From Candidatus Poribacteria bacterium (GTDB taxonomy: Bacteria; Poribacteria; WGA-4E; UBA9662), in the NCBI GenBank assembly GCA_036339735.1, contig JAYZAL010000047.1, positions 64,001 through 128,000 on the forward strand: 64,000 bases of DNA. Reading direction: 5' to 3'. Shown here one piece after another: positions 7,896-19,519 of the stretch (position 1 is the stretch's first letter; every line of letters starts with the position of its first letter). The notes below the pieces were generated by a model. The model was given only the letters and a program-made list of their open reading frames with translations. It was not told the DNA's origin and ran no database searches. Position numbers and translations under genes: made by a program.

Positions 7896-8600
7896 CTATC
7901 TTAATTCAAAGGTGGAAGGTAATATTGTATCCTCGTCGTAGATTAGTTGTGAACAGTTTGTGTTCACAAGGTTGGCTTTCTCGAGGTTTGCTCCCCTGAT
8001 ATCAGCGTTAGTTAGATTGGCTCCGTATAAATTGGCACCAGTTAGGGTTGATTTATATTTTTCATCATCACTATCGCTATCGCTATGGTGGCTAAAATTA
8101 GCTTTGGCCAAGTTAGCTGAAGTCAAATTAACACCTCTCAGATCAGCCTCCACTAAATCAGCATTCGACAAATCAGCCAGGGTTAGATCCGATCGTTCTA
8201 ATTTTGCCTGACGCAAGTTAGCTTTTGTTAGTTGTGCTTCTCTCAAATCTGAACCACTCAAGTTTACCCAACATAAATTAGTTGCATTTAGACGAGCGTA
8301 GCGGAGATCTGCCCCATTGAGACTGGCACCATATAAGTCAGCACCATCAAGATTTGCTCCAGTTAGGTTCGCGCCTTCCAGGTTTGCACGACTTAGGTCT
8401 GCATTGGTTAGATCAGCACCGGCCAGATTAGACCATCTAAGATCGCTATATGCCAAGTGGGCATCAGTTAAATTTGCACTTTCAAGATTGGTCCAGCTTA
8501 GATCACATCGACTCATATCGGCTCCAGTCAAATTAGATGCTACTCCGAGCTCGTACTTTCTTCCATTTTTCTCGACAATTTTCATGTTTTTTGTTTCCAA
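7896..8600 (-). CDS. Pentapeptide repeat protein
   Basis: Continuous A(D/N)Lxx repeats, interrupted once by HHSDSDSDDEKYKS. Confidence 0.92.
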   Translation of the reverse strand: METKNMKIVEKNGRKYELGVASNLTGADMSRCDLSWTNLESANLTDAHLAYSDLRWSNLAGADLTNADLSRANLEGANLTGANLDGADLYGASLNGADLRYARLNATNLCWVNLSGSDLREAQLTKANLRQAKLERSDLTLADLSNADLVEADLRGVNLTSANLAKANFSHHSDSDSDDEKYKSTLTGANLYGANLTNADIRGANLEKANLVNTNCSQLIYDEDTILPSTFELR

Positions 8601-8671: not shown

Positions 8672-10753
8672 TTAATTTTTGGTTTCTAATTTCTTGACTA
8701 ATTGATCAATTTGCCGGAACTGCCAACTCCAGCGCACGTTGTATAAGAATTGTCTCAAATCGAAACGATTATCCTCTGGTGAATACAGCTCAGCGTGATA
8801 GGATGGCGTCATAGTCGTCATCTTATGACGGTTAACTGAGTAGTAAAAAAAGAATCGTTTGACTTTTTCTGCAACTATGGCGGGGGATAGGTGCTCCCAT
8901 TCGTAAACTAGTTTCTCGAACATTCTCACAGGCCCACATCGGTGAACTTTACGTAAGATTCCAAATTTACCGAGTTCATCGTATGTCATTCCCATATCGA
9001 TTTCGTCTTTCTGATTATAATTCTCAGTAATCGGTTCAAGTTCTGCTGTTGGGGGAGCATTAACTACGTCAATCAAAGCTGGATATCCCAAGTGGTTCGC
9101 GGCCCAACGAAGAAATTGTCGAAGGTCCCTCTTACTAATACCACCGATTGGATTAATATCAGCGCTACTACAATCGTATTTGGTAACATATCCGCGCAAA
9201 CTTTCATCTACGTTTGCACTACCGAGAACAAGTAGTCCTCCTTTATAACCTCTAACCCAAGGCAATAATTGAGCCAATAGATATGCTAAAACCATGCGGG
9301 TCCGCGCCTGAATATTTTGTAACGCCAGATTTTCGGATAGTGATCCGCCGTTAACTTTAAATTGAGGCTGTTTGCCAGTCAAACGTACAAACAACGACAA
9401 AAAAGCATTAACAATTCCATCAATGTTAGCATTTAGATGAAAGTTGCCAATTTGTTCAGAAATGGCTTGAGCCCGGTCTTTTGTATCTTTTGAGCTATTC
9501 TCCGAAGCCATGTAACAGGTGTGCAAAATTCGATTAGCCAATTTATGTGCTGAACTTGGCATATAAGTCTCGTCTGCCAACACTTTACGGATATCAGCTA
9601 ATGTCTGTTGATTGCCTCTACTAATAGACTCTACAACCAGTTGACACATTGAACCAACTAACGCAATTGTGGATGAGCTATCAGCACCACCAGAAATCGG
9701 AACGAAGTAACCACTACTACCTGAGCGACGTAGATAATCCCAAAGCCAACAGGCTGGGCCATATGCTATTTCTTCTTCTGGTTGATGGTAAAAAACCGTA
9801 ATAGGTTTTGTCGGTGCTACAAACTGGGATGTTGTTAAATCAAAATCGATCGAAATTCTCTGAATATTGTCAACTTGTGTCGCTTGCGCCGATCGACTCG
9901 AAATTGATCGGCGAAATGAACAGACCTCTTGTAAGTCAACTGTAGCAGTTATGACTTCCACATCGTCAAGAGAAAACTGAGAGCCTTGTGCCACTATTTC
10001 ACCATTGATTGCAATCAAGGCGCAACCATCAAAATAGAGCCGGCTGCCGTCACAACCCTGTTGGTTGGCATATAGATAAACACCACCACCTTTCGCTGTT
10101 GCTCCTCGAATCAGATCAATACGTTCATTAAGTTTACGCAACTGATGATGCGAACCCGATCCATTAGTGATAATTTCAATACCATCCAACCCAAAACCGA
10201 TGTGTGGACTCTTCGGTGTAAAGAGCTCTTCACAGGTTTCTGATGCAACAGTAGTATCCCTAGTAGCGATAGCTGCAATTCCAATGGGTGCAGTGTGCTG
10301 TTGGTTCAGGTCACGGATCGTTTCTGGCAGGGAAAAAGGTTCAATACTTCGTTCTTGACTCCAGGCTGAGAACCAACGTGTTTCCCTATAATTTCCATCA
10401 TTAGCCAAAAAGATTTTGGGCCGAATCATCAAGATTTGCTGATTCAGAACTAATACACGACAATTGTAACTAACATTTTTGTGTGAGATAGGCATCCCAA
10501 TATCACACAAAATTCCCTCGGTTGCATCGCTGGATAATATCTCAGCCATCACTTCCCAAGCATGCAAAAAGGTGTCTTCTTCTAAAAACGCATCTTCACA
10601 ACTATAACCAGTAACTTCTAACTCTGGTCCAAGGCGATAAGTCGCATCTTGCTCTTTGGCAATTTGAATGGACTGAAGAATTCGATCTAAATTACCGTCA
10701 AAATCTAAAGACCACTGGTTCAGATTACAAGTAGCGAGGGTTGCTAGTCTCAT
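8672..10753 (-). CDS. nadE: Glutamine-dependent NAD+ synthetase (two-domain, eukaryote-like)
   Basis: Nitrilase-type glutaminase domain ([30 protein letters not shown]) plus synthetase domain ([45 protein letters not shown]). Confidence 0.97.
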
Positions 10754-10804
10754 AGCAAGATATTTTAAGATAGAGAACTATATTATTTGCAAAAAAACTA
10801 AATA

Positions 10805-10847
10805 TAAAAAGGGCGGGACGACAAGGTTGCCCTCATCGTATCCCGCC
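10805..10847 (-). terminator. Intrinsic terminator after the TPR lipoprotein gene
   Basis: Minus strand GGCGGGATACGA...TCGTCCCGCC followed by CTTTTTAT. Confidence 0.75.
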
Positions 10848-10889
10848 AAATTAAATTAAGTACTTCGCTGGCTTGCTAGGCCAGATATA

Positions 10890-12254
10890 TTACTTTTCTG
10901 GTTTGCTATTGCTATCTTGATCTGAAGTTCCAGCTTCCTGTTCTTGATAAAACATGAAACCATCTTCGTCTTGGTCAAGGTCAAATTGACGTACTAACTG
11001 TTGAGCTTCTCTGTAATATTTCAATTCGTCTGGATTATCTAAACTCATATATGCTTTGAACATTTCTCGGGCTTTAGCAAACTCACGAATACTTCGATAA
11101 CAAACGGCTTGCTGATAAACAGCTTCGTTTCGCCAAGTTGACTGAGGTGCTTCTGTAAATAGATTGTCATAGCCCTCTATTGCTTTTGTATATTCACCGT
11201 CTAGCTGGTGAAGACGACCTATTTGATATAGAGCATCAGCCTGAGCGAATTTATTACCAGTTAAATTTTCCGATAGTTCTCGATAAGCAAAAGTAGCATT
11301 AGGGTAATTTCTCATTTTGATCCAGCCAGCAGCGATGTTCTGGTAATCTTGAACGACTCGATCCCTTTGACCCATCTGGTATAAGTCTGCGGAAGTTACC
11401 AAGCGACCAGCTCTTCTCATGGCCATGGCCTTGGAATTAGTGTACTTAGATACATCATCTTGGTCTTGCTGAATCATAGTCAAAGTTTGGCGTGATCTTT
11501 TGAGTAATGTTTCAGCTTCACCAGCTTCGTAAGTACCGTTGTAGTCTTCTGCAACTTTCACAAAAGCACCCCAACCACCTGCATTGGTGTAATCATAAAG
11601 CTGGTAAAAATACAAATTGCCAACTTTAAATAGAGAACGAGGGGCAAGATCATGTTCCGGAAATTCATCGACTAGCTTTTCATAATTTGCAATAGCTTCT
11701 TCAAAATCACCTAGCCCAACATATGCTTCCGCTACTTTATACAGAGCTTGTACTGCGGCTTCCTGGCTTTCAGGTGTTTCGACTAAGCTGCGGTTTCTAT
11801 AAATTCGAAGTTGTTCCTGCACTTCTTGCCGATTACGCCGAATTGACGAAATATTACCTGCAGCTTGACTCCCTAAATAGCCAGTAGGAGCGATATCTAC
11901 CACCGACTGATAATGGATGATAGCATCATCTAGCTTCTTTCTATTTTTATGAATTTCAGCGATTTCGTAGTGGGCTCGTTGTTTGTAATTCATAACAGCC
12001 TTGCTAGTTTTGGTTGCTTGAGTAACCTCTAGGTATCCACCAACGGCTTCGTCGTATAGTTTGTTCTTTCGATCTTTTAGTTCATCTGCTCGTTTTTTAT
12101 CACTTGCAATTAAATCTTTATTGATTTGGATCAGTTCTGCCAGTTCAACTTTTCGATCGGCATTGCTAATTTTAACACTAAGTGGAACACATCCAATCAG
12201 CGATGTCATCACAATAAGCACAATCGGAAATAGCCAAACCATTAACTTTTTCAT
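10890..12254 (-). CDS. TPR-repeat lipoprotein (BamD/CpoB-like TPR pairs)
   Basis: ATG at 12254 gives MKKLMVWLFPIVLIVMTSLIGC with a lipobox; repeated TPR motifs (ALYKVAEAY, YEKLVDEFP, ALYQIG); Asp-rich C-terminus DLDQDEDG. The ORF track start at 12359 is probably too long. Confidence 0.8.
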   Translation of the reverse strand: MKKLMVWLFPIVLIVMTSLIGCVPLSVKISNADRKVELAELIQINKDLIASDKKRADELKDRKNKLYDEAVGGYLEVTQATKTSKAVMNYKQRAHYEIAEIHKNRKKLDDAIIHYQSVVDIAPTGYLGSQAAGNISSIRRNRQEVQEQLRIYRNRSLVETPESQEAAVQALYKVAEAYVGLGDFEEAIANYEKLVDEFPEHDLAPRSLFKVGNLYFYQLYDYTNAGGWGAFVKVAEDYNGTYEAGEAETLLKRSRQTLTMIQQDQDDVSKYTNSKAMAMRRAGRLVTSADLYQMGQRDRVVQDYQNIAAGWIKMRNYPNATFAYRELSENLTGNKFAQADALYQIGRLHQLDGEYTKAIEGYDNLFTEAPQSTWRNEAVYQQAVCYRSIREFAKAREMFKAYMSLDNPDELKYYREAQQLVRQFDLDQDEDGFMFYQEQEAGTSDQDSNSKPEK

Positions 12255-12397
12255 CAAAATCTTCGCAGCTAAGCCCCAGCTTTCTAGAGTGGGAAATAAA
12301 CTGCACCTCCTTTTTTGGGTTAAAAAGCGTTGATAGTGTGTAATTTTCTTGTAACTCAATGACCAAGGGAAAATAGCTCTTCTCTTTCTTCCTTGCA

Positions 12398-12662: not shown

Positions 12663-13505
12663 CTACTCTCTTCTTTCAAATCGAACAGCAATTTCTCCAG
12701 ATTGGTCTTCTTGAGGTAAATGGACAGGTAATTTATTAAAAATAAACTGAGCCACGAAACTTTGAGCTTTCTGCCTCAGTTCCCCCGCACGATTTTCTAT
12801 GACTTTGACTTTATAAACTGTACCATCTGGTCTTACCAAAAAACTGAGCTGGACTATCCCACCTTGGATACTACCAGCAACCAGTGATAGCGTTGGCCGA
12901 TAACGAATGCCTCGTCCTTTGACTTCACCTTCAATACTGTAAGGTAAAATCCCAGAGACTTTTTGGGATTGGTTTTTCCTTTGACCTTCAGATGAAACCT
13001 TGCCTGCAAAAAGTTGGTCGCCCCTGTCCGTCCTAAGTAGTTTTTGATTAGAATTTGTCGTACCGATTGGGTCTGATAGAGATTGATGTCCAACATCACT
13101 TGAAAACGACTTTGCTCGGATAGTAGCGTTGAAGTCGGTTTCATTTCCACGTTGCTTTTGTCCTTTTGGAACATTATTATCAATCCACTGTTCGGATGCT
13201 TGAGATCGAATTTGTGGAAAATTTGGCAAATTAGAATTTTCAGAATGGCCGCTTAAGAAACTGTCTAGACTTTGTATCGACTGCAGAGGTGGCAAGTCAA
13301 CTGGAACCTCTGTAGGTTCTGGCACGAAAGAAACTACTGGTTTATTTATTTCTTTCTTTTCTGGCTCTCGTTGAAAAATTTCAACTTGATAAGCTGTTTC
13401 CTCAATTTTAAGCGATGGTGGTTGGTACACTAACCAAGCAAAAAACAGAATGGCCACCAAGTGTTCAACAATTGCTAAAGGTAAAAAAAGACCGATCTTA
13501 AACAT
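12663..13505 (-). CDS. TonB/TolA-like energy transducer
   Basis: N-terminal TM helix with His (AIVEHLVAILF), Pro-containing linker, C-terminal VQLSFLVRPDGTVYKVKVI...AQFIF TonB-C pattern; ATG overlaps the ExbB-like stop (TAATG). Confidence 0.7.
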   Translation of the reverse strand: MFKIGLFLPLAIVEHLVAILFFAWLVYQPPSLKIEETAYQVEIFQREPEKKEINKPVVSFVPEPTEVPVDLPPLQSIQSLDSFLSGHSENSNLPNFPQIRSQASEQWIDNNVPKGQKQRGNETDFNATIRAKSFSSDVGHQSLSDPIGTTNSNQKLLRTDRGDQLFAGKVSSEGQRKNQSQKVSGILPYSIEGEVKGRGIRYRPTLSLVAGSIQGGIVQLSFLVRPDGTVYKVKVIENRAGELRQKAQSFVAQFIFNKLPVHLPQEDQSGEIAVRFERRE

Positions 13506-14212
13506 TAGACCAACTTGTTTGGGGGTTTTGCCCAATCTCGGACATTTTCGTATTTTTCCTGAAACAGTTTATACTCTTCTGTCACTAGGAATCGAATTAG
13601 GGACATTCCATGTCGCTCTAGTTCATTTAACAAGTTCTTAGCTTTTCGATTGAAGTAGTGATAAGCTATTAGCGTTGGAAGGGCAACAATCAACCCAGCT
13701 GCTGTTGTCAACAAAGCTTCCGAAATACCATCAGCAATATCCTGGAGATGCTTTCCTGATTGGTCTCCTTTCCAAAGAGCCTGAAAAGATGAAGTCATGC
13801 CCAAAACTGTTCCCAACAGACCAGTGTACATCGAGACACTAGATAACATCGCCAGAGTCTTCAGATGCCTGACAATTGGAGGCCTTTCGAGTCTAACAGC
13901 CGTACCAACCGCTGACTTTAGTTCTTTTTCATCATAAGAACGATTAGAAATTCCGGCTTTCAAAATATTAGTCAGGGGTGAAGGAACCCGCTCACACATC
14001 TGAATTGCAGTTTCTGGCTTACCGTCTATAAGCTCAGCATATATACTCTGGGTTACATAAACTGATGGGATTACCCGTTTCCTGCGTAAATAGTGCGCTC
14101 TTTCGAAAATTAGAGAATGCGACCAAATAGAAAAAAAAATCAAAAGAGCTAGTAGGTAGCCCCCACCCGCTAGTCGTTCTAACCCTTGTAATATTTGGTC
14201 AGCTATTAACAT
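13505..14212 (-). CDS. MotA/TolQ/ExbB proton channel family protein
   Basis: GLLGTVLGM...F, IADGISEALLTTAAGLIVALP...Y.YF; three TM helices. Confidence 0.93.
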   Translation of the reverse strand: MLIADQILQGLERLAGGGYLLALLIFFSIWSHSLIFERAHYLRRKRVIPSVYVTQSIYAELIDGKPETAIQMCERVPSPLTNILKAGISNRSYDEKELKSAVGTAVRLERPPIVRHLKTLAMLSSVSMYTGLLGTVLGMTSSFQALWKGDQSGKHLQDIADGISEALLTTAAGLIVALPTLIAYHYFNRKAKNLLNELERHGMSLIRFLVTEEYKLFQEKYENVRDWAKPPNKLV

Positions 14213-14237
14213 GGTTTAAAATCCAATTTATGTATAA

Positions 14238-16046
14238 TCAAAGCTGTAGTTCAACACCAAGATCGACATAGCTACCACGAAGGGGGTGATATGGCATAAC
14301 CATCGATCCACTAGATAAATATGCTCCCCCAATAAAGATTGTTAGATACTGACCAAGGTTTCTCTTCATTTTTCCTTTTAGATGAATCAGATTCGCTAGG
14401 TTTGGCAACTGAATGGCTTTTGTCGTTTCTGATTGTAAATGGTCTCTCGTATCGATTTCAATTGTAGCTGTTAACTCAGTTTGCAAAATGCCAAACAACC
14501 AGTATTTGCAATCGATGTAAGCACGATTTTTGGCTTGGTAAGGCACATAAATCGGCTGTAAATCTCTTTGGTAGGAAAACTGTAGTTCATCGCCATTAGA
14601 AGCCCTTAGTTTACCCGACAGGATAAAGCCGTATCGAGTAATCACCCGATCAGAATTAGTTGGCACCCAATTTAGTGGCTTCACTCGGTTATTCATCAAC
14701 CCAATCGTTACTCCTGAACTATTACCTTCAGCTAAGTAAATCAAATCTGTTGTTCTATTGGCGAATGTAGATAAGCTAAAGTCAATTCTTTGCCCCCTAT
14801 TGTAGGTTAAGTCAATTAGTTGAGACCAGTTCTTCTCTGGGTTCAAGAAAGGGTTTACCCGAACATAATTATTATTGAGATAAAGTTCGGAAATTGTATA
14901 GTGATGAATCTTTCTTTTTCCCTCGAAGTTCAATCGCCAATAGTTGCTGAGTTGGGTTGTTATCGTTAAGGTCCCACTCGGTTCTATTTGGGTGGATTCT
15001 ACATAACCTAGTCTGCTATCTTTGCTTACATCACTTGGCTCTAAATTGCGGAAACTAACAATACCAAGACCTAGACCGAAAACAAAAGGACCTATTTGAG
15101 TAAATTGGTCTTTGGCGTAAAGCTCCAATAAGGTCGACCAATTCTGGCTACTCTGACCCGTTGATAAATTCTCCGCGACGGATAAATACTGCGAATTGAT
15201 CCCAAAATGAATTGGATTTGCCAAATTTAAAAAATGGCTTCTGATGTTAAAGTTAGCCTGTAAGTCAGTCACTCCGTCATTCAATACACTAAATGATGGA
15301 TTAGCACCGAAGACTTCCAGTTTTCCATTAGATGTAAATTGAGTCTTGTCAGATAGCCAATGGTGAAGATTCCAATTAGATGCAAATAATTGCAAATTAT
15401 ATATGTTGGCTAGTTGGTCTGACACATTCAATGGATTAGCGTTAGGTTCAGGAGATTCCAGTGTAGTTATTCCCGAAGTTTCTAATGGCCAGGGTAAATC
15501 TCGAATTGATATTTGTGATGATAGTGCTATCTCACTTAAGGGACGATAGGCTAAATTCAATCCTGCTTCTAGGGCTATATCCGTTCCTTGATTGCTCTTT
15601 TTTAAATCATCCAAGTCTTGATAGTTGAACTGCATATAACCATTAACTTTATTATACGCAGAGCCAGCCAAAAGTGCCCTAAAGAATGGAGCGATGGGAA
15701 TACTAGGAGACGCTGTTACTAAAATGCTAGGATTCTTATTTGTTTCGAGCGTTTGCCGATCTATTTTCTGTGGTGTATGGATCGAAGGTAGATTCCACAA
15801 ACGTTCTTTGGCGTATACTCCAAGTGCTTGGTGTACAAATGGCCTAAAAGGGGAATTAAATCTGATTCTTGGCTCAAGTTGAATTTGAGTTGTATCAATA
15901 ATACCGATGGTTTGTTCGTCTAAACGAATACTTTCCTCATCGTCCAAATTCTGGGGGTATACCATCGACGACATAAAAAGTAAAAAAAAGATAGTGAAAG
16001 TCAAAAAGCCTTGGTTGTCCTGGTACCGAGATGCAAGTATTATCAT
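14238..16046 (-). CDS. Putative outer-membrane beta-barrel (TonB-dependent receptor-like, no clear plug)
   Basis: Signal peptide, amphipathic strands, NPFLNPEK motif, C-terminal GSYVDLGVELQL beta-signal-like end. Confidence 0.6.
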   Translation of the reverse strand: MIILASRYQDNQGFLTFTIFFLLFMSSMVYPQNLDDEESIRLDEQTIGIIDTTQIQLEPRIRFNSPFRPFVHQALGVYAKERLWNLPSIHTPQKIDRQTLETNKNPSILVTASPSIPIAPFFRALLAGSAYNKVNGYMQFNYQDLDDLKKSNQGTDIALEAGLNLAYRPLSEIALSSQISIRDLPWPLETSGITTLESPEPNANPLNVSDQLANIYNLQLFASNWNLHHWLSDKTQFTSNGKLEVFGANPSFSVLNDGVTDLQANFNIRSHFLNLANPIHFGINSQYLSVAENLSTGQSSQNWSTLLELYAKDQFTQIGPFVFGLGLGIVSFRNLEPSDVSKDSRLGYVESTQIEPSGTLTITTQLSNYWRLNFEGKRKIHHYTISELYLNNNYVRVNPFLNPEKNWSQLIDLTYNRGQRIDFSLSTFANRTTDLIYLAEGNSSGVTIGLMNNRVKPLNWVPTNSDRVITRYGFILSGKLRASNGDELQFSYQRDLQPIYVPYQAKNRAYIDCKYWLFGILQTELTATIEIDTRDHLQSETTKAIQLPNLANLIHLKGKMKRNLGQYLTIFIGGAYLSSGSMVMPYHPLRGSYVDLGVELQL

Positions 16047-16095
16047 CTATTCTGCTAAAATCTGTTCTGCTTAACTTACTCGCTCAATTCTATTT

Positions 16096-19000
16096 TTACT
16101 GTATTTTTCGCAAAAGCTCTTGGTACATTTTAGTTGCATATTGATGTAACTGATTCCAGTCCTTTTTTTGATTAGTATTGACTGATGAAATGTAATTTTT
16201 GTACAGGCTGATTGCATCTTCGTAGCTATCCTTAGCTAGGAGCTCTTTTTTAGCTTTTACGTAAGCGTCTGCTGCTCGAACTGCCGCATGCAGAGCTGTT
16301 AGTGGACTGTGCTGCTCCCTGAGATGACGGACCCGGAGATAAGTAGAGCCAGCTTCATAATATTGACCATTTAAGCTCAGGGTTTCCGCCAATCGTAATT
16401 CAGCATCAATGACAATCTCAACAGGATATTGATCACTTCCACCATCACGAATTTTTGCATAAGCCGAAATTGCTTGCGTATACTGTTTTTGGGCTCGATA
16501 GACATGACCCAAAAGGAGTTGGGTCATTTTGGCTTGTTCTGAACTAGCATACTTATCGAGAATCGTTCGATAAATCTCAGCAGCTTCCCCCCACCTTAAT
16601 AACTCTTGATTGCAATTTCCAGCAAGTAACAACGCTTGTGGTGCATCATTACTACTCGGGTATTCCCTCGCTACTGACAAAAAAGCTGCAATTGCCTTTT
16701 CGAGATTTCTCCCAGGATTGTTTTTGTTATACCAAACATAGCCAGCTTCATAACGAGACGTGGCGGCTAGTTCACTTTTTTTCGAGACCTTCTCAAAAGC
16801 GGCTATTGCTTGTTTGAACGATCCGATTTCTAGATAAGATTTACCTATGTGATATCGTGCTAAAGATGAGGATTCTGAGCGACCGTATTGATCGATGACT
16901 TTTTGGAATTCAGATATAGCCCTACTATAATTTTTTTGGATAAAGTAGAAACGGCCAATGTGAATCTGAACATCAGGTGCTAGAGGGCTATCCGGGTAGT
17001 TCTTAATAAGATAATTGTAGGCTTGGAGTGCTTGTTCACTTTTCCCTTGGTCCTCGTGGGCTGTAGCGATACCATATTGCGCATCATCAGCCCACAGACT
17101 TTTCGGATAGTGTTCAATGACTTTTTGATATCCTTGAATTGCTTTTTGATAATTTTTCAAATTGATATAGCTCTCAGCAACGTAATACTGAGCTTCAGGT
17201 CTCAGATCAAAAGTCTTTTCTGCTCCAGGTCGACCTGTCTGTAACTTCAGATTTGGAAAATTTTCGATAACTCTTCGGTACTCAGTAATAGCACTTGCAT
17301 ATTTCCCCAATTTAAAATAGGCATTCGCAATACCAAAAATGGCCTTTGGCTCTAGCTGCGAAGCAGGAAAAGATCGTAATTGCTCTTGAAAAGCCATTAT
17401 CGCATCGTTGTAACGTTCCAATTTGTAGAAGGACCAGCCAATCTGGTATTGAGCATCATCCCGCCAATTGCTAGTCTGATACGTTTGTAATAGTTCAGAA
17501 AAAGTATTTATTGCTTTTTGGTAACGCCTCAAATTGCTTTGTGCTACGCCTTGGTGATATTGTGCTTGGTCAGAATAACTACCAGACGGATGTTTTTTTA
17601 TCATTTCTTGCCAACTTATTACTGCTTGGCCATATAATCTATCCTGTTCATTCCCATCAGATAATACTGCCTCTGAGAAATAAGTCCAGCCGACACCAAA
17701 TCGGTATTTTTCAGCCCATTCCTCATCGGATTCTTTGTCTAACAAATCTTGATATTTTTGTCTGGCTGATTGGTACGCAGATTTGGATTCTTCTTGCCAA
17801 TAAGTACTTTCAGCAATAAAAAAGTCGGCTTGCTGACGAAACTGGCTTTCTGGATACCTTTGGATCAAAGTATTACAAACTATGATAACTTCGTTGTAGT
17901 TCTCGGCTTCGAATAAAGCTCTAGCCTTCCAGTACAAAGCTTCGTCGGCACTAGTAGTTGATAATTTACGGTCATCTAAGGTAATGAAATAATTATCAAA
18001 AGCCGATGCACTTTCAGAATATTGTCGCAGATTGAAGTAGGACAATCCAAGATGGTACAGAGCATAAGGTTTTAGGTCAGTGTTAGGCGTCAATTTCAGA
18101 AGGCTTTCGATCACCGAAACAGCACTCTGATAGTCTCTTAGCTCAAAGTAACTAATAGCAATCTGATATTGGGCGTCATCAGCATAAGGTGAGTCTTCCC
18201 GCACTTTTTGATAATTAAGGATCGCAGAATTAAATTCTCTGGATAACCGGAAACACTCACCCATTCTAAATCGAGCAGCGTCACTCAATTCTGAGTTAAG
18301 ATCATCCGCCACTAGTTTGAAAGCGGTTTTAGCCTCTGTATAGTCCTGCGTATTAGTACCGAGATTGAAATAGACCATCGCTATCCCGTATTGAGCATTA
18401 TCAGCTACTGTACTATCTGGATATAAGCGAATGACTTTTTGGTATTCGTAAATCGCCTCGTTTACCTTATCTTCTTCGGCGAGAATCTCACCAATCCAGT
18501 ATTGTGCTTCTGCCGACAAGGACGACTTTTCACTTTCATCTAACAAGTATGTGAATGTATCTCTGGCTTCAGTCATCATCTTTTGTTGAAAATAACATTC
18601 ACCTAATCGAAAGCGTGCGTCAGTGATGTATTGTCTTAGCAAATTTTGGTCTTGATGACTATGGTTTTGGTACCTATCAATAAATTGTTGAAATTCAATT
18701 TGAGCTTCCTGCCACTCATACATTTGGAATAAGGATTCCGCAGCTCGGTAAGTAGCCTCAATTGTAGCAGAGTGATCTGGGTATTGATCGACAAAGAGCA
18801 GTAACTGATCGTGAGCTTTCTGGAATTTTTTCAACCTATAATCAACCCATGCAATTGAATATAAAGCATCTGCGGACTGTTTCGTCTGTGGGTAATCTGT
18901 TAGAATTTGATCATAATACTCACGAGATTTTTGATACAATCCTAACTTTTCGTAAGACTCCCCTATTAGGTAAATTGACTCCGAAATGACCTCTGGTGAG

Positions 19001-19428
19001 TAAGAATTAATGTCCTCAGTTGCAGCTTCCCAAAACTCTTGAAACCCCTTGATTGATTCAGTATATTTGCCCTGACGAAACCAAGCAATTGCTATACCTC
19101 GAACGGCATCTAAGCGTAAGGAGCTATTTGGGTGTTCTGCTGTCAAGCGCTTGAAGTTTTGAATGGCTATACCGTATTGTTCTAAATTAAGCGCTGATTC
19201 ACCAACTAACAGGCGGGCATCGTCAACATTTTTACTTTCAGGATATTTCTGGATAAAGATCTCGAATTGGTCCTTGGCAACGGCATACGCTTTTTTTTCG
19301 TATAATTTATAGGCAAATGTATAATCTTCACGCTCACCGGCATTTGCCGTAATGGTACAAAACAGGCATAAGAGTACAAAGAAATGAGGTAGGAATCTTG
19401 AGATCGATTGCTTATCGTAAGACTTCAT
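16096..19428 (-). CDS. Giant periplasmic TPR-repeat protein
   Basis: Signal peptide (ANA-G); many paired TPRs of the type A.Y.IG..Y...Y..A...YQ.V...YP.S..ADDA. Confidence 0.9.
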   Translation of the reverse strand: MKSYDKQSISRFLPHFFVLLCLFCTITANAGEREDYTFAYKLYEKKAYAVAKDQFEIFIQKYPESKNVDDARLLVGESALNLEQYGIAIQNFKRLTAEHPNSSLRLDAVRGIAIAWFRQGKYTESIKGFQEFWEAATEDINSYSPEVISESIYLIGESYEKLGLYQKSREYYDQILTDYPQTKQSADALYSIAWVDYRLKKFQKAHDQLLLFVDQYPDHSATIEATYRAAESLFQMYEWQEAQIEFQQFIDRYQNHSHQDQNLLRQYITDARFRLGECYFQQKMMTEARDTFTYLLDESEKSSLSAEAQYWIGEILAEEDKVNEAIYEYQKVIRLYPDSTVADNAQYGIAMVYFNLGTNTQDYTEAKTAFKLVADDLNSELSDAARFRMGECFRLSREFNSAILNYQKVREDSPYADDAQYQIAISYFELRDYQSAVSVIESLLKLTPNTDLKPYALYHLGLSYFNLRQYSESASAFDNYFITLDDRKLSTTSADEALYWKARALFEAENYNEVIIVCNTLIQRYPESQFRQQADFFIAESTYWQEESKSAYQSARQKYQDLLDKESDEEWAEKYRFGVGWTYFSEAVLSDGNEQDRLYGQAVISWQEMIKKHPSGSYSDQAQYHQGVAQSNLRRYQKAINTFSELLQTYQTSNWRDDAQYQIGWSFYKLERYNDAIMAFQEQLRSFPASQLEPKAIFGIANAYFKLGKYASAITEYRRVIENFPNLKLQTGRPGAEKTFDLRPEAQYYVAESYINLKNYQKAIQGYQKVIEHYPKSLWADDAQYGIATAHEDQGKSEQALQAYNYLIKNYPDSPLAPDVQIHIGRFYFIQKNYSRAISEFQKVIDQYGRSESSSLARYHIGKSYLEIGSFKQAIAAFEKVSKKSELAATSRYEAGYVWYNKNNPGRNLEKAIAAFLSVAREYPSSNDAPQALLLAGNCNQELLRWGEAAEIYRTILDKYASSEQAKMTQLLLGHVYRAQKQYTQAISAYAKIRDGGSDQYPVEIVIDAELRLAETLSLNGQYYEAGSTYLRVRHLREQHSPLTALHAAVRAADAYVKAKKELLAKDSYEDAISLYKNYISSVNTNQKKDWNQLHQYATKMYQELLRKIQ

Positions 19429-19519
19429 TTTGAAATATCCGATCACGCTGTTGTTGGTGGGGCTTATGGCTGTAAAAGCAGGAGGCCATTTTGATCGAAA
19501 ATCCGCCGGTCAATTTTCA

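Follow-up and report, generated by a model that had tools for sequence, protein, structure and literature searches.

A predicted NAD+ synthetase of the eukaryotic NADSYN1/Qns1 type on a bacterial chromosome of the Poribacteria

The gene and its product

The stretch of DNA considered here (the window) is 64,000 nt long and covers positions 64,001 to 128,000 of contig JAYZAL010000047.1, from a Candidatus Poribacteria bacterium (assembly GCA_036339735.1). The host genome is a 4.32-Mb draft, 92% complete, and this is one of its 107 contigs. On the reverse strand of the window, at 8672..10753 (stop codon included), lies an intact open reading frame (ORF) with an ATG start and a 693-aa product, annotated from the ORF list, Pfam and its match to structure 6ofb as a glutamine-dependent NAD+ synthetase like NADSYN1 and Qns1. 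A nitrilase-like glutaminase domain occupies residues 6–281 (9911..10738; Pfam CN_hydrolase, 132.2 bits), and a C-terminal NAD synthetase domain (an N-type ATP pyrophosphatase) residues 336–596 (8966..9748; Pfam NAD_synthase, 95.8 bits), both on the reverse strand. They are followed, after residue 596 and on to residue 693, by a eukaryote-type C-terminal extension, the alignment with the human protein running to residue 690.

A reading of the window made earlier from its letters alone (the sequence-only reading below) had proposed that this is a eukaryotic-type NAD+ synthetase on a bacterial chromosome, and the database comparisons made here agree. The best match among all PDB chains was human NADSYN1 (6ofb), at 932.7 bits (E = 1.2e-279), collinear from end to end with query residues 2–690 on chain residues 4–696. 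The search matched 23 distinct sequences in total; the runners-up were the bacterial 3ilv (634 aa, 219.7 bits) and Mycobacterium tuberculosis NadE (3dla, 66.5 bits), with 5kha and 4f4h at about 45 bits each. All five motif strings quoted in the sequence-only reading are present, at residues 6–21, 326–344, 474–501, 507–541 and 657–679. Its statement that the protein differs from typical bacterial NadE is borne out by NCBIfam, where the protein falls below the cut-offs of both full-length bacterial NadE equivalogs (PRK02628, 132.9 bits vs a cut-off of 473; PRK13981, 119.4 vs 479) and passes just one NadE model, the generic nadE domain (89.8 vs 63.65). As a control, PRK13981 scores 728–750 bits for other Poribacteria and PRK02628 scores 902–926 bits for other Anaerolineae. 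The Atlas clusters nearest to the protein are 91–100% Eukaryota. By its sequence, then, the product of 8672–10753 belongs to the eukaryotic NADSYN1/Qns1 enzyme type, and its likeness to the human enzyme is far beyond chance. The protein had also been likened to yeast Qns1, which is a eukaryotic glutamine-dependent NAD+ synthetase.

Active site and ammonia tunnel

Residues were mapped by alignment with 6ofb, using the residue names given in the available part of PMC6946656. The glutaminase triad is Cys174 (codon at 10232–10234), Glu44 and Lys113, with a second Glu at position 175; they align with human Cys175, Glu45, Lys114 and Glu176, and all four are invariant throughout the 39-row alignment used for the most careful tree below (15 of 15 rows of the bacterial clade, 20 of 20 eukaryote rows and the four outgroup rows). 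The loop DGNYRE (residues 119–124) is the counterpart of the human YRE loop, EGNYRE, and the PP-loop SGGADS lies at residues 354–359 (9677–9694).

At the constriction of the ammonia tunnel, Tyr123 and His203 (human numbering) are described as conserved in eukaryotes, with Phe and Pro in prokaryotes (PMC6946656, available part). The 693-aa protein has the eukaryote state, Tyr122 and His202. Tyr and His are found in all 15 bacterial-clade rows of the alignment; among the 20 eukaryote rows Tyr is present in every one and His in 19, and the four PRK13981 outgroup rows all have Phe and Pro. Two other sites differ from human NADSYN1, the gating Trp179 being Phe178 here and Tyr58 being Leu57, but both of these replacements are frequent in other eukaryotes.

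Human NADSYN1 and the 693-aa protein have in common the two domains, the triad with its second Glu, the GNYRE core, the Tyr/His pair, the PP-loop and the C-terminal extension. The poribacterial gene differs in lying on a bacterial chromosome, without introns, among bacterial neighbors and with bacterial composition, and the human chain exceeds its product by some 13 residues. Its predicted reaction, its domain order, triad and PP-loop are also those of the PRK13981 and PRK02628 types of NadE, the former about 545–585 aa long and used by other Poribacteria, the latter (the type of M. tuberculosis 3dla) about 680 aa and used by other Anaerolineae. Unlike PRK13981 it has Tyr/His where those outgroup rows have Phe/Pro, the same contrast that is drawn between eukaryotes and prokaryotes in the available part of PMC6946656, and in trees it is separated from both types by branches of 5–7 changes per site. 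The nearest solved bacterial relative is 3ilv, a Cytophaga enzyme according to the available part of PMC3376133. It can be aligned across the two domains and some of the C-terminal region, but the match is some four times weaker than the human one; this type is not among the tree outgroups.

Predicted function and NAD pathway of the host

The protein is very probably the NAD+ synthetase of the cell, of the NADSYN1/Qns1 type. Its N-terminal nitrilase-like domain would hydrolyse glutamine by means of Cys174, Glu44 and Lys113, and the ammonia would travel through a tunnel lined by the eukaryote-type Tyr122 and His202 to the C-terminal PP-loop domain, which would adenylate nicotinic acid adenine dinucleotide (NaAD) and then amidate it to NAD+. 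The activity, any preference for glutamine over ammonia, the oligomeric state and the tunnel geometry are predicted by analogy with human NADSYN1, an octamer whose ammonia tunnel is intra-subunit. NaAD would be supplied by NadD, fed by the de novo route through NadA and NadC. The host genome contains nadD (186.6 bits, above cut-off), nadA (321.1 bits) and nadC (196.8 bits), and with these the de novo route as far as NaAD is in place; a match to the NAPRTase family is weak (37.4 bits).

The sequence-only reading had asked whether the genome has another nadE. A PF02540 search of the 92% complete draft found none: its four matches are the NAD synthetase gene itself, GuaA (GMP synthase), MnmA and LarE, and the eukaryote-type gene is the only NadE among them, although a second one could lie on DNA missing from the draft. 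The LarE-type sacrificial sulfur transferase (318.2 bits) is encoded beside MnmA, at 880–1749 of locus L003 on contig C104.

Distribution among bacteria

The phylum was surveyed in 101 Poribacteria genomes, 94 from the order of the host (the host included; families f1–f4) and seven from other orders and classes. A full-length match, 61–100% identical and free of internal stops, is found in all 94. None of the seven others carries the eukaryote-type gene, giving only weak matches (E from 1e-5 to 3e-12), and the three of them tested by NCBIfam have an ordinary PRK13981 NadE, with the scores of 728–750 bits noted above. In five genomes of genera g8 and g12 (G057, G058, G060, G071 and G080) the match comes in two pieces, at residues ~4–311 and ~315–691, within a single open frame of 719–779 aa (continuous, 734 aa, in L028). 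To judge from the reading frames, the gene in these genomes is not split but carries an insertion in the linker that joins glutaminase and synthetase.

A scan of prokaryotes with one genome per species gave 204 relatives. Among the best 80 of these 204 there are 48 Poribacteria, 30 Chloroflexota, one Trueperaceae and one unnamed bacterium, the Chloroflexota being Ardenticatenaceae, Promineifilaceae, Caldilineaceae, Leptovillus and other Anaerolineae. Even samples were then drawn around a Chloroflexota carrier, at the level of phylum, class and order, and around the Trueperaceae carrier at the level of order. The eukaryote type is present in just one of 401 genomes in the Chloroflexota phylum sample, the centre genome itself, and in one of 151 in the class sample, where four other genomes have matches of 31–32% identity (two were tested and are of the PRK02628 type). 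One order of Anaerolineae has it in 33 of 151 genomes. In the order of the Trueperaceae it is again found once (1 of 101), in the Trueperaceae metagenome-assembled genome (MAG) itself. The eukaryote type is thus fixed in one order of Poribacteria and patchy elsewhere.

One Ardenticatenaceae carrier also keeps a single-domain NadE-like gene (G104:C36:68815–69684, a 326-aa frame, 101.3 bits to PF02540), and this double set may represent an intermediate state before replacement.

All named close homologues of the protein are from entries called "Candidatus Poribacteria bacterium". The stretch itself was found in 14 DNA runs, with 78–100% of sampled words present; these are labeled as seawater or marine metagenomes, with one unlabeled. 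When RNA runs are included, the runs come from 11 studies.

Phylogenetic placement

To collect homologues, 1.84 billion cluster representatives were searched exhaustively with HMMER, which gave 915 proteins at E <= 1e-30, the best representative at 58% identity and 933.0 bits. There was no separate Poribacteria representative among the 915, which suggests that the bacterial proteins fall in the same 50% clusters as eukaryotic ones. The named rows include red algae (Chondrus, Gracilaria, Cyanidium, Galdieria, Cyanidioschyzon and others), the green lineages Raphidocelis and Physcomitrium, the Rhizaria Amorphochlora and Plasmodiophora, Mucoromycota fungi, one ascomycete, an insect and a ciliate. 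Named eukaryotes are about 55–60% identical to each other and to the bacterial proteins. Queried from Chondrus, a Chloroflexi MAG (59%) and Poribacteria (57–58%) are level with cyanidialean red algae. A Lupinus angustifolius entry (P0042, 1201 aa) has one N-terminal TCNLN and two SGGADS PP-loops, at 351 and 873, and an inflated bit score; as a partly duplicated or mis-joined gene model it was excluded from every tree.

In FastTree reconstructions of 86 and 117 rows the bacterial proteins form one clade with support of 100, placed beside red algae, and families f2, f3 and f4 are each recovered. A quick IQ-TREE analysis of 52 rows under LG+C20 with posterior mean site frequencies (PMSF) also recovered the bacterial clade (94 in the Shimodaira–Hasegawa-like approximate likelihood ratio test, SH-aLRT), in a polytomy with animals, Mucoromycota, Rhizaria and Archaeplastida. 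For a more careful tree, 13 of the 52 rows were dropped, some as long or unplaced (P0160, P0161, P0157, P0170, P0153, P0152 and the Durotheca row P0165), the others as near-duplicates or unplaced unknowns (P0370, P0346, P0359, P0425, P0433 and P0361), leaving 39: 15 of the bacterial clade, 20 eukaryotes and four PRK13981 outgroups. This tree recovers Opisthokonta (98/99, ultrafast bootstrap [UFBoot]/SH-aLRT), Rhizaria (100/100), the green lineage (100/99) and red algae (80/99). The bacterial clade, at 90/91, is sister to Opisthokonta (88/90); the animal rows group together at 100/99 and the bacteria lie outside animals plus fungi (98/99). Adding four PRK02628 outgroups in a quick tree left the topology unchanged (SH-aLRT 82).

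Several finer placements were tried and given up. The affinity to red algae seen with FastTree is gone under the mixture model, and the bacteria are without a 1-residue insertion found in red algae. Chloroflexi are nested within Poribacteria in the careful tree (80/87), but this is not claimed, as holding the six Poribacteria rows together costs only 5.29 log-likelihood units (lnL) in the approximately unbiased (AU) test (p-AU 0.291). As roots, the PRK13981 proteins of other Poribacteria and the PRK02628 proteins of other Anaerolineae are too distant, and attach to the longest eukaryote row. Three candidate intermediate outgroups (P0285, P0289 and P0207) turned out to be eukaryote-type proteins themselves, with 301.8–512.2 bits to 6ofb vs at most 173.8 to 3ilv.

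The 693-aa protein groups with eukaryotic sequences in all trees, far from PRK13981 and PRK02628. By these alignments the bacterial enzymes are one clade within the eukaryotic family, either at the base of the radiation of supergroups or inside it. Membership in a widespread, ordinary bacterial clade, the outcome that the sequence-only reading had named as fatal to its proposal, is excluded: the relatives are a compact set from one Poribacteria order, some Anaerolineae and one Trueperaceae, placed among NADSYN1/Qns1 proteins.

Origin and direction of transfer

A compact bacterial clade that branches among eukaryotic supergroups points to an ancient transfer between domains and to later spread among bacteria. 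Such a transfer would have been followed by passage from bacterium to bacterium, giving the present carriers in Poribacteria, some Anaerolineae and one Trueperaceae. In Poribacteria, the ordinary PRK13981-type NadE that other members of the phylum keep would have been replaced in the ancestor of the host order, and the new gene, fixed in the common ancestor of that whole order, would have been inherited vertically since, with composition that is now fully host-like.

On balance the gene probably passed from a eukaryote to a bacterium, since every eukaryote sampled has the enzyme, while its distribution in bacteria is narrow and patchy. The bacteria form a single compact clade, every unconstrained tree, rooted on ordinary NadE, nests them among eukaryotes, and other Poribacteria have kept the ordinary enzyme. 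A number of observations weigh against this direction. The outgroups sit on branches of 5–7 changes per site and join the ciliate, which has the longest eukaryote branch. Neither the root nor the apparent nesting that depends on it can therefore be relied on. A clear long-branch artefact was seen in the 52-row tree, where the outgroup attracted long rows, among them the ascomycete, which was in this way separated from the remaining fungi. The nearest eukaryote shifts with method and sampling, from red algae to a polytomy to Opisthokonta. Holding the 20 eukaryote rows together costs just 2.91 lnL in the AU test (p-AU 0.316). The 39-row alignment has no indel that would link the bacteria with any one eukaryote subgroup, and the 1-residue insertion carried by all seven rows of the red-algal clade is missing from them. 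The trees have no labeled rows for Amoebozoa, Discoba, Metamonada, Asgard or sponges, and many eukaryote rows are unnamed.

The bacterial clade could instead be the sister of all eukaryotic NADSYN1/Qns1 proteins, a living relative of the donor to the eukaryotic stem, in which case the gene would have moved on later between a few phyla of bacteria. This is a real if less probable possibility. Eukaryote monophyly is left standing by the AU test just cited; the bacterial stem is very short (0.04–0.05), at the base of the eukaryotic radiation; and the outgroup placement that produces the nesting resembles long-branch attraction. When the tree is read without a root, the bacteria attach between Opisthokonta and the remaining groups. 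The split between Opisthokonta and other groups is one proposed position of the eukaryotic root. In an earlier tree the eukaryotic NAD synthetase branch derived from a bacterial branch, and a sister position would agree with that conclusion of bacterial origin, as given in the available part of PMC3376133. The range of the bacterial genes is however narrow (one Poribacteria order, and 33 of 151, 1 of 401 and 1 of 101 genomes in the samples above), the bacteria are one compact clade rather than a paraphyletic basal series, and all unconstrained maximum-likelihood (ML) trees put them inside the eukaryotes. The PRK13981 enzyme in other classes of Poribacteria also argues that the eukaryote type is not ancestral to the phylum. 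Were the sister position nevertheless correct, it might tentatively be supposed that the eukaryote enzyme, including its "eukaryote-specific" tunnel, was invented in bacteria and acquired shortly before the last eukaryotic common ancestor.

The sequence-only reading had offered just this pair of alternatives, transfer from a eukaryote or a bacterial sister lineage, and the data leave both standing. The tree that it proposed as a means of choosing does not decide between them: in the ML analysis the bacteria are nested, with Opisthokonta as their sister group (88/90), yet a single clade of eukaryotes is not rejected by the AU test.

That a sponge or some other host animal recently donated the gene, in the manner of a symbiosis-related eukaryote-like gene, seems very unlikely. 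Many Poribacteria are sponge symbionts, which together with the position beside Opisthokonta in the careful tree brings such an origin to mind. In that tree, which has no sponge row, the clade nonetheless lies outside animals (100/99) and outside animals plus fungi (98/99), and identity to the best animal-like representative is just 58%. The gene is in all 94 genomes of the order, diverged by up to 39%, and its composition is fully host-like; the lineage of the window, moreover, is found in seawater and marine metagenomes (the 11 studies above).

Genomic neighborhood and integrity of the contig

All of the genes around nadE that are given here with coordinates are on the reverse strand. Its upstream neighbor encodes a TPR-repeat protein of 489 aa (10890..12359; Pfam TPR). 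Farther upstream is a cluster at 12663–19446 made up of an ORF with no Pfam match (12663–13535), an ExbB/TolQ-family gene (13505–14212; Pfam MotA_ExbB), a second ORF with no Pfam match (14238–16046) and a gene for a 1116-aa TPR/YfiO-like protein (16096–19446; Pfam). Downstream, after 71 nt, is a gene for a 234-aa pentapeptide-repeat protein (7896..8600; Pfam Pentapeptide, 185.8 bits), for which tblastn gave a match in the window's own locus (L005) only, among the loci examined. By Pfam the neighbors are bacterial, with glycosyltransferases besides the pentapeptide-repeat protein, the TPR proteins and ExbB. The order ExbB, unknown ORF, TPR, nadE is common to the five closest pelagic relatives (L006, L007, L086, L089 and L094; tblastn).

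The nadE gene has no introns. Its GC content is 0.42, and its GC content at third codon positions (GC3) is 0.346, compared with 0.29–0.36 in 13 neighboring ORFs; with the Pfam assignments of the neighbors, this upholds the earlier description of an intron-free gene of host-like composition in a bacterial setting. The borders were checked in Logan contigs from studies not flagged as a possible source of the assembly. The 3' border is spanned by DNA contigs from two other studies (X8 records 23 and 24, X13 record 1), and so is the 5' border (X8 record 27, X13 record 7); orthologues are found on single-contig chromosomes of 4–7 Mb. The 107 contigs of the draft were the sole reason to consider an artefact of assembly or binning, with a eukaryotic fragment attached to a contig of bacterial DNA; no support for it was found, and it is refuted by these bridging contigs, by the orthologues on single-contig chromosomes, by the lack of introns and host-like GC3, and by the ExbB–TPR synteny kept in five relatives. 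The chimeric contig that the sequence-only reading had allowed for is accordingly excluded.

Upstream region and expression

The spacer upstream of nadE is 136 nt long (10754..10889, reverse strand). A hairpin stem at 10847–10812 (predicted fold −25.1 kcal/mol, z −4.64, with none of 200 shuffles as good) is followed by a CUUUUU T-run at 10811–10806, and to judge from this arrangement the upstream TPR gene has its intrinsic terminator here. In the AT-rich part of the spacer, a TAAAAT at 10767–10762 is separated by 8 nt from the ATG at 10753. The AT-rich 33 nt at 10778–10811 match otherwise unrelated contigs in two DNA runs, probably a low-complexity coincidence.

The gene is probably expressed, since contigs from the RNA libraries of two studies span most of it (26 of 30 and 21 of 30 bins); the libraries may however hold DNA, and contigs of this kind cannot show RNA ends. 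At the 5' side the contigs reach 10821 (X15) and 10819 (X16), both within the stem of the terminator and 66–68 nt upstream of the start codon, and in X15 the next contig begins at 10823 with about 3x the depth. These ends are a weak hint of partial read-through of the terminator, or of a start near the hairpin, rather than of a leaderless mRNA.

The TAAAAT 8 nt before the ATG and the lack of a clear Shine-Dalgarno (SD) sequence, both pointed out in the sequence-only reading, are seen in the sequence, with no GGAG-like motif between the TAAAAT and the ATG. The leaderless transcript that was proposed from them is unlikely. It would fit the short distance from terminator T-run to ATG in the closest relatives (only 13–25 nt), but the RNA-library contigs, subject to the limit on RNA ends already given, extend well upstream of the start codon, and a consensus scan found no sigma-70-like promoter in the 136-nt spacer (the region has five sites, none upstream of nadE, where 6.7 would be expected by chance). 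Nor is a missing SD unusual here. There is no SD-like motif at 25 of 38 crude ORF starts in the window or in 18 of 19 Poribacteria orthologues, vs three of seven orthologues from Chloroflexota and Trueperaceae.

In the five pelagic relatives named above, the terminator hairpin of the TPR gene ends 13–25 nt before the start of nadE. This leaves almost no room for a promoter of its own, so nadE in the pelagic lineage may depend on read-through of the terminator.

Relation to earlier work and significance

The enzyme family is well known; what is new is that a whole bacterial order, and parts of another phylum, carry the eukaryote type. A full-text search, with subscription journals and supplements outside its range, found no paper treating Poribacteria together with NAD synthetase or synthase, and none on a bacterial homologue of the NADSYN1/Qns1 type or on transfer of NADSYN1 from eukaryotes to bacteria; for NAD synthetase and Chloroflexi it gave only papers that were, judged by title, unrelated. 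The closest parallel is the archaeal-type phosphopantothenate synthesis of Poribacteria described in the available part of PMC7883664, which likewise concerns a housekeeping cofactor enzyme of another domain's type in the same phylum. There the pathway is that of CoA and the donor Archaea.

Together with those archaeal-type enzymes for CoA precursors, the poribacterial NAD+ synthetase would be an example of xenologous replacement, across domains, of an essential cofactor enzyme. For the phylum it is a synapomorphy that cleanly sets off one order (all 94 of its genomes carry the gene, vs none of seven outside it). For the family, it breaks the stated split between prokaryotes and eukaryotes, both in the tunnel residues (Tyr/His vs Phe/Pro) and, by prediction, in the tunnel itself (intra- vs inter-subunit); this split has been used to argue for selective inhibition of the M. 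tuberculosis enzyme. The intron-free bacterial genes may also serve as tractable, non-animal models of human NADSYN1. If the clade is truly sister to the eukaryotes, it would bear directly on the origin of the eukaryotic NAD pathway, and if it also resembles the donor, this would be a rare case of a core eukaryotic cofactor enzyme whose bacterial source can still be sampled.

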